DNA from: a virus
Lineage: Duplodnaviria; Heunggongvirae; Uroviricota; Caudoviricetes
Reading direction: 5' to 3' (one strand)
DNA: 57,168 nt
IMG/VR virus record: IMGVR_UViG_2537561944_000042
Part shown: positions 18,439 to 57,168 of the stretch, piece by piece
Layout of the letters: the number at the start of each line of letters is the position of its first letter
Position numbering within the stretch: position 1 is the first letter of the stretch
Program-made: the position numbers and the translations under genes
Notes under the pieces: model-generated
Told to the model about the DNA's origin: nothing
The model's database searches: none
Seen by the model: the letters and a program-made list of their open reading frames with translations, nothing else

Positions 18439-18535
18439 TATTAGCTCCTTCTGATGCCATTCTATTTCAGGAAGGAGTGTCCGTTAAACTCAGGCTACCT
18501 CACCTCAGCATAAAGAGGCTTTTTTGTAGAAATGG

Positions 18536-51486: not shown

Positions 51487-51972
51487 CTACCTGATATTAC
51501 TGCTACTGTTGCATGTTACCGTGTTTCCAAATCCTGAATTGCAGTTTGTATATGTGTCAACGCGTGTTGGGTAAGGTTGAGTTATAACAGGCTGGCGCGC
51601 TTTTTGCTCGATCGCTTGCATTGTGTTTACAGCCTGATAATTCAATAAAGCCTGCTGGAATGCTTGGCTTTGTGCTATTTGTTGGGCTTGTTCTTGGCTT
51701 TGTAATTGAACATAAAGATTCTGAAGCTCAAGTCTTGCCTGTGCGTCACTTATCTTGCCTTCATCGACACCTTTCCCGAGCATCTTTGCAGCAAGGACAT
51801 ACAGCTTAGGTGTTGGTGCTGATGCCATGCGTGAGTCGTTCTTCACACTGGCATCAAGGCAATTAGCCATATCGCTAAGCTTTTGATAGCGTTGTTCGCA
51901 ACTTGCTTGATAGTCACTTACTTTTGCGCATCCAACCAGCAGAAACGGGATAATTAACAGTGATTTTTTCAT
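51487..51972 (-). CDS. lipoprotein encoded antisense to the late operon (moron; candidate superinfection-exclusion or surface-modification factor)
   Basis: Signal peptide with lipobox MKKSLLIIPFLLVGC; Q-rich C-terminal region; ATG at 51972. Confidence 0.6.
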   Translation of the reverse strand: MKKSLLIIPFLLVGCAKVSDYQASCEQRYQKLSDMANCLDASVKNDSRMASAPTPKLYVLAAKMLGKGVDEGKISDAQARLELQNLYVQLQSQEQAQQIAQSQAFQQALLNYQAVNTMQAIEQKARQPVITQPYPTRVDTYTNCNSGFGNTVTCNSSSNIR

Positions 51973-52042: not shown

Positions 52043-52342
52043 CTATGTTTCCTTTTTATTATTGCTATACATGGTCTTAAGCGTTTCAAAAACCATTTTC
52101 TTAACCATATCAGATTGTTGTTCTGCCATACGCTCTGCATCATCAATGTAAACGGATGCAGAGCTTTGTTTAGCCAACGATTCTTCAATCGCTGCAATTA
52201 TCTCTGAGTTCAGCGACCTGTTATTCATCTTCGCGCGCTGTTTAATTTTCGCGTGGAGTTCATGCGGAAGTCTCAAGTGAAACTGCGCCTCGTCGTATTT
52301 GCTGTACATCCTTGATGCCTCACCAGTTGGGTGGAATGGCAT
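52043..52342 (-). CDS. mnt: Mnt-like ribbon-helix-helix repressor (Arc/MetJ family)
   Basis: ...FHLRLPHELHAKIKQRAKMNNRSLNSEIIAAIEES...AERMAEQQSDMVKKMVFETLK parallels P22 Mnt as recalled. Confidence 0.75.
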   Translation of the reverse strand: MPFHPTGEASRMYSKYDEAQFHLRLPHELHAKIKQRAKMNNRSLNSEIIAAIEESLAKQSSASVYIDDAERMAEQQSDMVKKMVFETLKTMYSNNKKET

Positions 52343-52430
52343 CGTAACCTACTGGATAAATACTCAATAGTACCATTTCGGTATGCAATCACATCATGGT
52401 TGCATCATATCATTCTTCTGGAGCAATGAA

Positions 52431-54554
52431 ATGTCAGATATCACCGCAAATGTTGTGGTCAGCATGCCTTCGCAACTCTTCACTATGTCTCGCTCTTTTA
52501 AAGCCGTAGCCAATGGAAAAATTTATATCGGTAAAATTGACACTGACCCGGTAAATCCAGAAAACCAGATTCAGGTTTATGTGGAAAACGAAGACGGTTC
52601 TCACGTTCCTGTTTCGCAACCAATCATCATTAACGCTGCTGGTTACCCTGTATATAACGGACAGATTGCCAAGTTCGTAACTGTGCAAGGCCATTCTATG
52701 GCTGTTTATGATGCATACGGTGCGCAGCAGTTCTATTTTCCGAATGTGCTAAAGTATGATCCAGATCAGTTTAAGGGCAATCTCCTGAGCGAAGATCACT
52801 CACTTGGCGACTCTCTAGTCATGCATAACCCACAGTTTGTCGATAGCACATCGACCATTCTCTCAAAAAAGCTAACTATCGACCTGAGGACGCTTACAGA
52901 CTACGGGTTTGCTGAGGGAAACACCGGTGCTCAGAACAAAGCTGCATTTCAGAAGGCTATTGATGATGCTACGTTGCCAACTGAGATTGTTATACCAGAG
53001 GGGGCGTTCATTGTTGACCCTGGTATTACGATTAAGAATACTGTCACCATGATACGAGGTGCTGGCGCATATCAGTCCAGAATTTTCTCTACGGGTACAG
53101 CGGCACCGATAATCACGCAACAAGATGGGGTAATTACGTTCTGCGAGTTCAGGGACTTTGGTCTTGACGGAAATGGCTACGCAGCTAACGGCATCAGTCT
53201 TACTGAAGCCAACCACATTAAAATAGAAAATATTGACGTGGTTAATACTAATAACAACGCAATATTAGTTAACGGTTACTCCATTGACATCATTGGGTGC
53301 CGGTTGTTTCAAAACGCCGGTAACGGTATTAATGTTGGTGGTTACTGCAATAATATTAATATAATCAACAGCCGTATCTATGGTAACGGAGCCGGTGGAG
53401 TTTTACTTACGCCAGCTTACGCTGAGGGCGGTATGAGCGTCAGAGTTAATGGCAACAATATAGAGCAAAATAAGTTCTACGGACTTTTGGCTTACGGGGT
53501 TAAAGGCCTTAACCTTGATGCTAACTATTGGGAACGCAACGGTGAGATTGGTTACCCGTATAGTGTACCTGAGTCTATTACAGTACGTGCGGATATCCAC
53601 CTTATCGCGAACAATTTTACATTAATTCCTGACCTTTCAAAAATTAATGATACCGTATCTATTCGCGGGAATCAGCAGACCGCGATTGGCTACGCCAGCG
53701 CGCTACCTAACCAAGACGGATTTATTTTCACGAACTATGCGAAAAACCTGACGATTGAAAATAATCAGTTATTAGACGCATCGAAAGTGAATAATTTATT
53801 AGCAATGTACCACAATAATCTTTCGTCCAAAGTTACTGACAGGCTATATCTTGCCAACAACACAGTGAACTCCATCGGATACGTTGGTAGTTATGACCCG
53901 GCGACACAAAACCCTGACACTGCGCATTTAATAGATATTGCGAACAGAGAGTTAACTGCTAACTATCTTGATCGAAATATGTTGCTCTGGACTGCGGCAT
54001 CTGGAACTACAGGAACATTGATAAAAACTCAAAACATCTATGCTGGTAATTATTCATTCTTAGTTACGACAGGAGATAGAGTTTGGGGACGAACGATAGA
54101 CCTCAACAAATCACCAGAACTAAAAGGGAAATTTGTATGGTTTGGTGCGTGGGTCAATGACCAGGGATCAGCGTCAAAACTTATGTTTATAATTAATGGT
54201 GCAGGACAAACAGACTCTACAGCACCTTTAGCTGGTAATGGGAAATGGAGCTATGTTAGTTGTGGTGTGTATATATACGAAACTGATACAGCTATAAATG
54301 TTGGTATAAGAAATTATGGTTCAGGAAATGTACTCATAAACTCACCTTCTCTATGTGCATATGGAATGCCATCAAACGCGTTGCAAGTTGAAAAAACAAC
54401 ATTTTATCTTTCGTCAGTACCTACATCCGGTTTCTGGGATATAGGTGAGCGTGTTATCAATAGCGCACCTGCTTCAGGACAACCAAAGGCATGGACATGC
54501 AATATTCCAGGTGGGCCAGGAACCTATTCTTTCTTATCAGAGGGAAACTTTTAA
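52431..54554 (+). CDS. tailspike protein (P22 gp9-like N-terminal head-binding domain plus divergent beta-helix receptor-binding domain)
   Basis: [13 protein letters not shown]...[40 protein letters not shown]... matches the P22 tailspike N-terminus as recalled; ATG at 52431 with GGAG RBS. Confidence 0.85.
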
Positions 54555-54590
54555 AAGACCTATGTATTGAAATGATTACTTTGATCTGGT

Positions 54591-55766
54591 ATGTTTAAAA
54601 AAATCAGTAAAACACATTTTGATATGGAAAGAAAAACAAATAAGTTAGACTCTATTCAAGTCCTTAGAGGGATCGCGGTACTTCTAGTCATTGCGTTTCA
54701 CTTTAGAGTATATTTAAATGGAGTGTATGCCCAAAAGGACTTGGGCGACATTCTTTTTGGTATAGGTGAGGTTGGTGTTGATATATTCTTTGTTATAAGT
54801 GGATTTATCATTACTTATTCTTCAATGAATAAGGCAAAAAACCGGCCAATGGTGTTTGCTGCTAAGCGTTTTTTTAGGTTGTACCCTGTTTACTTTATAA
54901 TCCTTACTCTGGCTATATACCTCAACTATGAGGCAATATATACATCATCACAAATAATAAAGAGCTACTTGCTCATACCAATTGACTATAATTTTATAGG
55001 GCCATGGTCAGGTTATAGTATAATAATACCTGCATGGACACTAACGTATGAAATTTGGTTCTATGTGGTTTTCTTTTTTTCATTATGCATCAGCCATAAA
55101 TATAGAACTGCGATCGCATCATTTCTTCTCATCATTATTTGCGTTCTTGGTCAACTGTACTTTCACGGAGATGTTTTTCTAAATCCTATCGCGCAACCGC
55201 CATCTGGTGATGGAATTATTCGTAATCTGGTATTTGTATCAAATCCAATAATATATGACTTTATTTTGGGGATGATTATTGCAGAGGCCTACATTAGGCT
55301 ACCTTCTAGACTTATAAATAAAATGCCTGTTGTTCAATTTCTTAATATTACATTAGCGATTGCCTTGCTTTTTTTATGTCTAGGGTTAAGGAATGGACCT
55401 GGAATTGTAGCATGGGGGGCTTATTCATTTATGATTATAGCCCCAATAGTCCTTATTTCTAAGTGTAGGGATGTATATAGAAATAAAATTCTAACGTATG
55501 TTGGTGAAATATCCTATTCACTTTACATTAATCATATGGTTGTATACAGTCTTGCTGTTTTATATCTCAAACCGTACGGGGTATTGGATAGTAAAGGATT
55601 TGGTGTTTTTCTAGCTATGATTTGCGCTACTTTTATTATATCAATCATATCTTATAACTTTATTGAAAAACCATCAGTATCCATAGGGCATGCCATCGCT
55701 CGTAGAATGCAAAAAAAATCAGATGTATCTTCAATTAAAACTGAATCCGTTAGAGAAGCACCTTGA
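54591..55766 (+). CDS. acyltransferase-3 family membrane protein (O-antigen acetyltransferase-like lysogenic conversion gene); start may be the second ATG at 54624
   Basis: 391-aa polytopic membrane ORF; N-terminal ...VLRGIAVLLVIAFHF... typical of acyltransferase 3; AT-rich. Confidence 0.8.
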   Translation: MFKKISKTHFDMERKTNKLDSIQVLRGIAVLLVIAFHFRVYLNGVYAQKDLGDILFGIGEVGVDIFFVISGFIITYSSMNKAKNRPMVFAAKRFFRLYPVYFIILTLAIYLNYEAIYTSSQIIKSYLLIPIDYNFIGPWSGYSIIIPAWTLTYEIWFYVVFFFSLCISHKYRTAIASFLLIIICVLGQLYFHGDVFLNPIAQPPSGDGIIRNLVFVSNPIIYDFILGMIIAEAYIRLPSRLINKMPVVQFLNITLAIALLFLCLGLRNGPGIVAWGAYSFMIIAPIVLISKCRDVYRNKILTYVGEISYSLYINHMVVYSLAVLYLKPYGVLDSKGFGVFLAMICATFIISIISYNFIEKPSVSIGHAIARRMQKKSDVSSIKTESVREAP

Positions 55767-56010
55767 TAAATAGAGCAATAGCCAGATAGCACCTAACCGA
55801 TTTCGTACTCATAGGGTTGTCACTTTACCAAACTGAGAGGAAATACACTGATAACAGTTGGTTATGAAGTACTGGGTGAGGTGGATGTGAATGGTATTTT
55901 GATGCATTTCATTAACCTGTACGCCTAAGAAAGCAACCCTGAAATCTAAGACACACAAGCTTTGCACTGGATTGCAAGGCTTTGTGCACTTCGATAGTGG
56001 TTAAGGTGGT

Positions 56011-57168
56011 TCACTCCACCTTTTCATCAAGCCAGTCCGCCCACCATTGCATCATTTCTCTGCGCTTATCGAGATACTGAGCATGGTTGTAAATACCGCG
56101 CACAGATCCGCCGTTGGCATGTGCCAGTTGCACTTCAATAGCGTCAGCAGGCCATTCGTGCTCGTTCATAATCGTGCTGAATTCATGCCTGAATCCGTGA
56201 CCGCTTTCCAGACCCTCATAGCCGATTTGTTTGATCACAAGTAGCACCGCGTTCTCGCAGATTGGCTTCTTCTTATCGTTGCGCCCGGCAAAAACAAATT
56301 CTGATACTGGTTTGGTGATGGAGCTTAACGTAGTGAGAAGTTCAACCACCTGGTCCGACATCGGGACAACATGAATTTTGCGTCCCTTCATCACATTGGC
56401 GTCAATGGTGATAATCCTGTTTTCAAAATCGACGTTCTTCCATTGCATGGAACGAAGCTCTTTTGTTCTTAGGGCTGTGTAGCGTAAAACCTTGGTGGCA
56501 ATGAGCGATACGATACTTCCTGAAAATGTTGCCAGTGCTTTATTGAATGCCGGGATCTGGTCTGCAGGAAGAAACGGGAAGTTCTTCTTGCGGTATCCCC
56601 TCATGGCGTCAGCAAGGTCAGGTGCCGGGTTATATTTAGCCCTGCCGGTGACAATAGCGTAACGGAAAACCTCGCCGCATCTTCTGCGGGCTTTATTTGC
56701 TCGCTCCATTGCACCGCGATCTTCAAATCTGCGGATTACTTCCAGCAGTTGCATCGGCTCAATATCCTGAATTTCAAGGCCGCCGATGATAGGCAAAATG
56801 TCGTCATCAAACATTTTTGCAAGTTCAGTCGCATACCCTACTGACCATACTTGCTTCTTGTGCTCGTACCATTCCTTGTAAATCGCACTAAAGGAATTGT
56901 TGTTAGACGAAGCCTTTTTCGCCTTTACCGGATCGATGCCAACCGAGATGTCTTTCCTCGCAGTCCATGCCTTATCCCTTGCCTCCTGCAAAGTCATTAG
57001 CGGATATTTTCCGACGGTCAGGATTTTCTCCTTACCGTCAATCTTGTAGCGAAGCTGCCATACCTTTTTCCCGGATACAGGAACATAAAGGTACAGGCCA
57101 TTACCATCGAGAAGGCGGTATGGTTTTTCTTTCGGCTTTGCTGCTTCAATCTGCTTAACGGTGAGCAT
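56011..57168 (-). CDS. intS: P4-type tyrosine integrase, apparently intact (IntS-like); ATG sits exactly at the window edge
   Basis: 385-aa ORF; N-terminal MLTVKQIEAAKPKEKPYRLLDGNGLYLYV...; C-terminal catalytic region with HGFRHEF and YNHAQY; symbol from memory of E. coli CPS-53 IntS. Confidence 0.8.
   Translation of the reverse strand: MLTVKQIEAAKPKEKPYRLLDGNGLYLYVPVSGKKVWQLRYKIDGKEKILTVGKYPLMTLQEARDKAWTARKDISVGIDPVKAKKASSNNNSFSAIYKEWYEHKKQVWSVGYATELAKMFDDDILPIIGGLEIQDIEPMQLLEVIRRFEDRGAMERANKARRRCGEVFRYAIVTGRAKYNPAPDLADAMRGYRKKNFPFLPADQIPAFNKALATFSGSIVSLIATKVLRYTALRTKELRSMQWKNVDFENRIITIDANVMKGRKIHVVPMSDQVVELLTTLSSITKPVSEFVFAGRNDKKKPICENAVLLVIKQIGYEGLESGHGFRHEFSTIMNEHEWPADAIEVQLAHANGGSVRGIYNHAQYLDKRREMMQWWADWLDEKVE

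Follow-up and report, generated by a model that had tools for sequence, protein, structure and literature searches.

The DNA analysed here, called the window throughout, is the whole 57,168-nucleotide (nt) stretch of IMG/VR virus record IMGVR_UViG_2537561944_000042, and the locus in question lies at its positions 52431-55766. According to the open reading frame (ORF) listing of the window, this locus consists of two co-directional genes, a tailspike gene (52431-54554) followed by an acyltransferase gene ending at 55766, just where the original prediction, made from the bare sequence, had placed them. By its sequence, the window is identified as part of the Escherichia coli O26:H11 chromosome carrying a P22-like (Lederbergvirus) prophage at argW. 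The prophage is apparently a complete Lederbergvirus, and the two genes represent its receptor-recognition and lysogenic-conversion end. That they encode a tailspike and a membrane protein of the acyltransferase-3 (AT3) family is considered close to certain. Beyond these identities it is argued, as a probable reading that leaves considerable room for doubt, that the tailspike recognizes the O26 O-antigen, that the acyltransferase modifies this antigen into a poorer receptor, and that the two sequences form an exchangeable cassette.

The tailspike gene

The tailspike ORF (52431-54554, plus strand) encodes 707 amino acids (aa) from the start MSDITANVV. Its head-binding domain, which serves as the tail-hub anchor, occupies aa 1-113 (52431-52769, plus strand), where the Pfam family PF09008 (Head_binding) is matched over its full profile (1-113/113, E=2e-67). 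The anchor is about 90% identical to those of Sf6, HK620 and CUS-3, in agreement with the P22-type N-terminus that had been predicted. Similarity to the tailspikes of P22, Sf6, HK620, CUS-3 and epsilon34, at the level of DNA as well as protein, ends at about aa 115-125. The receptor-binding body (aa 114-707; 52770-54554, plus strand, including the stop codon) gives a weak match to Pfam Beta_helix PF13229, and the PDB sequence matches to the P22 and Sf6 tailspikes are confined to the head-binding domain, apart from a weak Sf6 similarity that extends to aa 256. An Sf6-type endorhamnosidase, the candidate raised by this extension, was rejected because the similarity is weak past aa ~117 and falls short of the catalytic region of Sf6.

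The AlphaFold2 model of aa 114-707, computed for the monomer from 22 homologues, is confident (mean predicted local distance difference test score, pLDDT, of 87). It predicts a disordered linker, a short helical cap, a long right-handed parallel beta-helix of the kind that forms the body of P22-like tailspikes, and a C-terminal beta-sandwich. The tailspike joins a P22-type anchor to an unrelated beta-helix body, and the proposal of a different body behind a conserved anchor holds.

The acyltransferase gene

The second gene (54624-55766, plus strand) encodes an AT3-only membrane O-acyltransferase of 380 aa. Pfam Acyl_transf_3 (PF01757) is matched with E=1e-28 and 100.8 bits, against a gathering cut-off of 31, over 325 of the 326 profile positions; NCBIfam gave no meaningful match for either the tailspike or the acyltransferase. 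The gene is AT-rich, with a GC content of 34.4% (28% at third codon positions, GC3) vs 46.4% for the whole window, and the AT-rich AT3 membrane protein expected directly downstream of the tailspike is therefore present. The protein is identical to WP_000440209.1, and its best phage family is PHROG 3333, 'O-acetyltransferase' (E=3e-103). The AlphaFold2 model (pLDDT 89.9) consists of helices only, about ten of them long membrane helices; model and hydropathy together place the protein in the AT3-only class, which is characterized by ~10 transmembrane helices, a single Pfam domain and no fused SGNH domain.

The hallmarks of bacterial AT3 carbohydrate acetyltransferases were defined by Pearson 2020 as R/K-X10-H in transmembrane helix (TMH) 1, FFXISG in TMH2 and RXXR in TMH3, the first of which is essential in OafA. 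All three motifs are found in the window's protein. In an alignment with Oac of Sf6 and GtrC of BTP1 the invariant elements are R15-X10-H26, FFVISG (55-60), RFFR (82-85), WTLTYE (138-143) and E348, and F55, F56, S59, G60, R82 and R85 are invariant columns. That the predicted acyltransferase is of the Oac type is upheld by this full set of conserved catalytic motifs and by the location of the gene in the conversion-gene slot between tailspike and int at argW. The term refers to type and not to descent, as identity to characterized enzymes is low (20-33%): being 20% identical to Oac of Sf6 and 28% identical to BTP1 GtrC over its AT3 portion, the protein is a member of the AT3 family and an orthologue of neither. 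Orthology with Oac was rejected both on this identity and on membership in a different AT3 subfamily (PHROG 3333).

A search of PDB sequences with the acyltransferase returned no match at E<=1, and the sole resemblance to a solved fold was to the transmembrane acetyl-CoA transferase HGSNAT (probability 0.99, E=0.018). This resemblance fits a unification of AT3 proteins with that fold which has reportedly been published. The genes gtrA, gtrB and gtrC were not found between tailspike and int in the window, and the slot thus holds no GtrABC module.

Acyltransferase homologues occur widely in Enterobacterales. At 50-87% identity they are still full-length, with their motifs conserved, in different genera, and purifying selection is implied by this. 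The matches listed in a profile search of genome contigs with the acyltransferase alignment were all remote AT3 proteins of unrelated bacteria, at 24-36% identity.

Occurrence in O26 genomes

The genome survey covered 5,426 complete E. coli genomes. The tailspike body was found in 105 of them, at 142 places, and the acyltransferase likewise in 105 genomes, once in each, while wzx/wzy of O26 are present in 109. A combined query, consisting of the 3' part of the acyltransferase and wzy/wzx, returned 109 genomes (214 places). Since the union still amounts to 109 genomes, all carriers are O26, and the pair is present in 105 of the 109 O26 genomes and in none of the 5,317 others. An acyltransferase encoded by a prophage, outside the rfb cluster, is thus found in 96% of complete O26 genomes; within the rfb cluster of O26 there is no gene for an acetyltransferase.

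The accessible part of Pas et al. 2023 (Virol J 20:174) presents the tailspike of the RM10386 prophage as the representative receptor-binding protein of O26 Lederbergviruses, a specificity that was predicted there from the host serogroup and not measured. It also describes how the body passed horizontally to an epsilon15-like (Uetakevirus) prophage in the O26 strain E2865. Together with the confinement of the body to O26 genomes, the O26 prediction in that part of the article agrees with the receptor different from those of known tailspikes that had been expected from the divergent body. Considering the fold and the strict restriction to O26, it is inferred that the tailspike binds the O26 O-polysaccharide and probably cleaves it.

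The acyltransferase gene is intact and is not a pseudogene, one of the conditions that the original prediction named as refuting it: the ORF is uninterrupted in the window, and it is intact with all catalytic motifs in 103 of the 105 carriers. In two O26 carriers, SJ2D (NZ_CP074730.1) and 13081 (NZ_CP074971.1), the acyltransferase is split into two coding sequences and the match is one base longer. The split and the extra base point to a frameshift, which would make these two natural loss-of-function strains, of use for comparison.

Body and acyltransferase in other lineages

Related pairs are found behind other anchors and in other hosts. On a metagenome contig, an epsilon15-type anchor (Tail_spike_N) is joined to a body that is 64% identical to that of the window, followed after 36 nt by an acyltransferase that is 87% identical. 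In Limnobaculum, where the anchor is also of epsilon15 type, body and acyltransferase adjoin each other and both are 56% identical to their counterparts. A second, unrelated body family precedes an acyltransferase of the same family, 55% identical to the window's, in Morganella morganii. One Morganella genome has this pair behind a P22-type anchor, another has it behind an epsilon15-type one; the bodies are 99.4% and the acyltransferases 100% identical, and the cassette is swapped at the anchor junction (loci L023, 3898-7107, and L024, 3967-7107). In Enterobacter, a body 75-78% identical to the Morganella one is accompanied by an acyltransferase 72% identical to that of Morganella.

The same association is seen in IMG/VR. 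A co-directional tailspike lies directly upstream in seven of the eight closest acyltransferase loci analysed; an anchor of P22 or epsilon15 type is present in the flank of 45 of 66 loci with acyltransferase homologues, and a tailspike ORF ends within 400 nt in at least 41 of the 66. Beside many distant relatives of the acyltransferase in this database the tailspike is convergent, as in Sf6. We read this as a slot beside the tailspike that is filled by varied O-antigen-modifying genes, the acyltransferase version of which often moves with the body. Body and acyltransferase would then be a two-gene cassette exchanged between P22-like and epsilon15-like phages by recombination where anchor and body meet; this is held to be probable jointly with the explanation of which it is a part, and with the same reservation.

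The acyltransferase can also outlast the phage. In FDN-24, a chicken isolate and carrier with a 4.8-Mb genome, the prophage is degraded, yet mnt, tailspike, acyltransferase and intS remain. A decayed prophage of Cronobacter turicensis (L021, 5899-7149) contains a tailspike relic, the final 21 codons of the gene, upstream of the acyltransferase, with gtrABC adjacent to the latter, and in a cryptic Escherichia (L004, 4019-8140) a 41-codon relic of the window's body family lies next to guaA together with two different AT3 genes. As the acyltransferase is kept while the phage decays, its retention suggests a benefit to the host.

The spacer and the start of the acyltransferase

Tailspike and acyltransferase are separated by a spacer of 69 nt (54555-54623, plus strand), which contains a promoter-like element and a run of seven adenines. 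The element consists of TTGAAA (54567-54572), a 17-nt spacing and TGgTATGTT (54587-54595). The same arrangement of -35 and -10 sequences is found upstream of the homologous acyltransferases in loci L005, L004 and L006, and L004 keeps it though only the last ~14 nt of the tailspike gene remain directly upstream. The conserved element is suggestive of a promoter for the acyltransferase and is treated as putative.

The adenine run (54597-54603) lies just past the putative -10 sequence and comprises seven residues in the window (A7) vs eight (A8) in strain 11368; the other 39 genomes listed with this region align over 3537, not 3536, bases. The A8 of 11368 and the extra base of the other genomes indicate that the conserved start is ATG 54624, giving 380 aa, as in RefSeq. 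An alternative ORF of 391 aa from ATG 54591 is in frame only in the window, owing to A7. The difference may be a sequencing error or slippage, and it changes the leader and opens the longer ORF from 54591. The Dam/OxyR phase-variation signature of gtr operons was also looked for by inspection and rejected, as the single GATC in the spacer (54583-54586) is too few.

The prophage and its surroundings

The 3.5-kb region is 100% identical, one base excepted, to O26:H11 strain 11368, to RM10386 (NZ_CP028126.1), to FORC_028 and to many more. Strain 11368 has, in succession, ejection-protein genes, an ORF for a lipoprotein, a mnt-type repressor, tailspike, acyltransferase, intS, tRNA-Arg (argW) and yfdC. 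Homologues of gp4, gp10, needle, gp7, gp20 and gp16 form a P22-type virion module upstream of mnt and the tailspike, and the position of the tailspike gene after the ejection-protein genes and the immI region is that of P22-like phages. The 11368 prophage has a full P22-type complement, with the structural and lysis set (terminase, portal, scaffold, coat, gp4, gp10, needle and lysis genes) as well as the regulatory and replication set (Q, nin region, replication genes, cI/cro/cII, erf, abc and xis).

On the far side of the acyltransferase, a spacer (55767-56010) in which no terminator-like hairpin was detected on either strand separates it from the convergent gene for an IntS-type tyrosine integrase (56011-57168, minus strand; Pfam Arm-DNA-bind_3, Phage_int_M and Phage_integrase). 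A scan of both strands found no terminator after the tailspike or the acyltransferase. The start codon of the integrase is at the last base of the window; RefSeq names the protein 'prophage integrase IntS', and it is followed by tRNA-Arg (argW) and yfdC in the reference genome. The acyltransferase therefore lies between the tailspike and an IntS-type integrase at argW, and because the layout of tailspike, acyltransferase and int is the same as in Sf6, this is the classical conversion-gene slot.

Divergent from the tailspike is the gene of a Mnt/Arc-type repressor (52043-52342, minus strand; Pfam Arc E=1e-14, Repressor_Mnt E=4e-12), which RefSeq starts at 52309 and annotates as 'Arc family DNA-binding protein'. 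This single repressor makes up the immI region (52043-52430), and there is no arc or ant before the tailspike, unlike in phage N7 and in P22.

Between the gp16-like ejection gene and mnt, a 161-aa predicted lipoprotein with the signal MKKSLLIIPFLLVGC is encoded at 51487-51972 (minus strand). No Pfam family is matched; the protein falls into PHROG 6067, to which no function is assigned, and it is a candidate superinfection-exclusion lipoprotein; the matching position in P22 is that of sieA. The sole base substitution relative to 11368 in the 12.7 kb compared is at 51945, inside this gene (A in the window, G in 11368).

Over its length the window is collinear with the 11368 prophage record, with two differences that both involve insertion sequences (IS). 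An IS3-family element at 17239-18501, absent from 11368, breaks a DUF551 gene in the early-left region of the prophage; both of its ORFs, orfA (HTH_Tnp_1, 18136-18438) and orfB (rve, 17282-18100), are on the minus strand. Conversely, 11368 has an insertion of ~1.3 kb at window position ~9595 that is missing from the window. Past the xis end of the prophage, 11368 contains a second tyrosine integrase with an internal stop (L003, 36044-37234; about 14035-15226 of the window), then IS elements and a restriction-enzyme fragment, which suggests that the argW site is tandemly occupied by another, degraded element.

Proposed function and alternative explanations

By homology, the tailspike would join the P22-type tail hub through aa 1-113, and its beta-helix body would bind, and probably cleave, the O26 O-polysaccharide. 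In lysogens the acyltransferase would be transcribed, probably from its own promoter in the 69-nt spacer. Following the model for OafA and Oac, the acyl group would be taken from cytoplasmic acyl-CoA at Arg15/His26 of TMH1 and passed through the membrane, and a hydroxyl of the O-unit, composed of rhamnose (Rha), N-acetylfucosamine (FucNAc) and N-acetylglucosamine (GlcNAc) in the order Rha-FucNAc-GlcNAc, would be esterified at the periplasmic face. By analogy with Sf6/Oac and BTP1/GtrC, the modified O-antigen would serve tailspikes with this body less well as a receptor. The benefit, by the same kind of analogy, could be less superinfection, less loss of progeny on the debris of lysogens and changed surface antigenicity. 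In Sf6 with Oac, P22 with Gtr and BTP1 with GtrC, the modification to our knowledge impairs the phage's own tailspike.

Self-exclusion specifically, proposed in the original prediction as the purpose of the modification, is plausible but a more tentative claim than the explanation as a whole, with a chance that falls slightly short of even. More doubtful still, although possible, is the wider claim that nearly all enterohaemorrhagic and enteropathogenic E. coli (EHEC/EPEC) of serogroup O26 (105/109) O-acylate their O-antigen by means of a prophage enzyme, with a co-evolving two-gene cassette moving between P22-like and epsilon15-like phages.

Several observations weigh against the explanation. 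First, the association in 105 of 109 genomes is largely vertical inheritance and does not represent 105 independent events, because most O26 genomes belong to one clonal group. Second, structure prediction and comparison with known O-antigen lyases, suggested as a check in the original prediction, bore out the beta-helix and did not single out a lyase: the fold of the body matches hydrolases, lyases and epimerases alike, fold comparison does not distinguish a hydrolase, a lyase or a mere binder, and none of its residues could be assigned as catalytic. Third, the body is not always partnered by this acyltransferase. Relatives that are 79% and 87% identical stand beside gtrABC in other hosts, one that is 59% identical is paired with an unrelated AT3 gene, and those of phage N7 and of a lytic-type contig have no modification gene. 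Fourth, promoter-like sites are no commoner in the region than expected by chance or in shuffled sequence according to a consensus scan, so the proposal of a promoter in the spacer rests on conservation across homologous loci; nor is there an obvious Shine-Dalgarno sequence upstream of the acyltransferase. Fifth, our literature searches found no O-acetylation of O26 and no account of a role for the acyltransferase. Manca et al. 1996 reportedly described the O26 structure without an O-acetyl group. A paper of 2025, in its accessible part, gives the published O26 repeat as GlcNAc, FucNAc and Rha.

Finally, the 105 carriers hold 37 extra copies of the body. The copy examined belongs to an epsilon15-like prophage and is 98% identical across 52889-54520, with differences confined to the linker and the last residues. 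Where a second prophage with the same body resides in the same cell, any exclusion is incomplete, or else one prophage had to enter before the other. In O26-type E. coli genomes (L009/L010, 6001-9121) the tailspike of the epsilon15-like prophage is an 873-aa protein of epsilon15 type with the same receptor-binding core (98% nt identity), and it is followed by a lone gtrA, without gtrB or gtrC, and then by lysis genes.

The first alternative is that the acyltransferase modifies the O26 antigen for some purpose other than excluding its own tailspike. Unrelated phages specific for O26 may be blocked by the modification, or immune recognition altered, or the tailspike may tolerate or need the acylated receptor. 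The extra copies are what such a role would allow, and the near fixation of the acyltransferase in O26 (105/109) and its survival of prophage decay, with the phage-independent host benefit that this suggests, point in the same direction. On the other hand, in the parallels named above it is the phage's own tailspike that is impaired, and the tight linkage of body and acyltransferase across anchor types is most simply understood as a functional match. The alternative is therefore thought unlikely.

In a second alternative the acyltransferase acts on some other glycan of the envelope (enterobacterial common antigen, colanic acid, the lipopolysaccharide (LPS) core, peptidoglycan or periplasmic glucans, for example), its place beside the tailspike being simply the usual accessory 'moron' slot. 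AT3 proteins reportedly acylate many substrates (review PMC9558356), their acceptor specificity is unreadable from sequence, and identity to characterized O-antigen acetylases is only 20-33%. Against this stand the annotation of the nearest phage family as O-acetyltransferase/O-antigen acetylase, the oac or gtr modules that occupy the slot in related phages, the gtrABC genes that adjoin the Cronobacter acyltransferase, and the neighbours at the 66 viral loci, which are overwhelmingly tailspikes. An acceptor other than the O-antigen, including any of the glycans named, is considered quite improbable.

A silent or non-functional passenger that is clonally inherited and leaves LPS unchanged, the case that the original prediction named as refuting it, would agree with a reference O26 structure reportedly free of O-acetyl, with the weak ribosome-binding site, with promoter evidence no better than chance, with the split gene of SJ2D and 13081 (2/105) and with near-100% identity across carriers, which reflects clonality and not selection, but it is very unlikely in view of an ORF that is intact with every catalytic motif in 103/105 genomes, of the purifying selection implied by the full length and motifs of homologues at 50-87% identity, of the retention of the gene while neighbouring phage genes decay and of the promoter-like element conserved upstream.

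Modification of the O26 antigen by the prophage enzyme thus remains the preferred reading, and it would have practical consequences. O26 is the leading non-O157 serogroup of Shiga-toxin-producing E. coli, and serotyping sera, diagnostics and candidate glycoconjugate vaccines are directed at its O-antigen. If the reading is true, the natural O26 antigen differs from the textbook structure, and also from recombinant antigen and glycoconjugates built from the rfb cluster alone, and the modification affects the range of phages and tailspike-based reagents able to bind O26 strains. The receptor-binding body itself is a candidate O26-specific binding or depolymerase reagent.

Comparison with known systems

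Part of this is already known: the O26 assignment of the tailspike has been published as a prediction, and both genes are routinely annotated in RefSeq. The role of the acyltransferase in O26 and the cassette-like co-transfer appear undescribed in the literature searched. Over the region, the window has 100% identity to the RM10386 Lederbergvirus prophage, which the accessible part of Pas et al. 2023 assigns by prediction to the O26 subtype; that part makes no mention of the downstream acyltransferase.

The closest characterized parallel is Sf6, which is likewise a P22-like phage, with an anchor ~90% identical to that of the window and with an AT3-only acyltransferase that shares the catalytic motifs and lies between the tailspike and an IntS-type integrase. 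The order in Sf6 is tailspike, oac, int, attP and xis, and in the window tailspike, acyltransferase, intS and tRNA-Arg. Because attP lies beyond int, integration leaves tailspike, acyltransferase and int side by side next to argW. The differences are that the tailspike body is unrelated past aa ~117, that the acyltransferase is only 20% identical to Oac, and that oac is convergent with the tailspike whereas the window's gene is co-directional. Furthermore, the host glycan is the S. flexneri Y backbone in the one case and O26 in the other, and the function of Oac has been demonstrated, whereas that of the window's enzyme is a prediction.

GtrC of BTP1 and OafA/OafB of Salmonella have in common with the window's protein an AT3 domain with the R/K-X10-H, FFXISG and RXXR motifs, and GtrC is also prophage-borne and next to a tailspike. 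These proteins are AT3-SGNH fusions of about 600-640 aa, in contrast to the AT3-only 380 aa of the window's protein, which is 28% identical over AT3. The only sequenced phage with a full-length relative of the tailspike is N7 (MH717096), whose tail protein has a P22-type anchor and is 64.6% identical overall and 58.6% in the body; instead of an acyltransferase it has a small hypothetical gene between tailspike and int. The Morganella and Enterobacter cassettes (L023, L024 and L025) resemble the window in an acyltransferase that is 53-55% identical, co-directional and 36-69 nt downstream of the tailspike, with both anchor types represented. They differ in the tailspike body, which belongs to the second, unrelated sequence family, and their receptor glycan is therefore presumably different.

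The locus is thus a familiar phage arrangement, like the tailspike/Oac/Int of Sf6 and the tailspike/GtrC of BTP1, and not a new kind of system. It adds a further example of genes for receptor recognition and receptor modification held together as one exchangeable phage unit.

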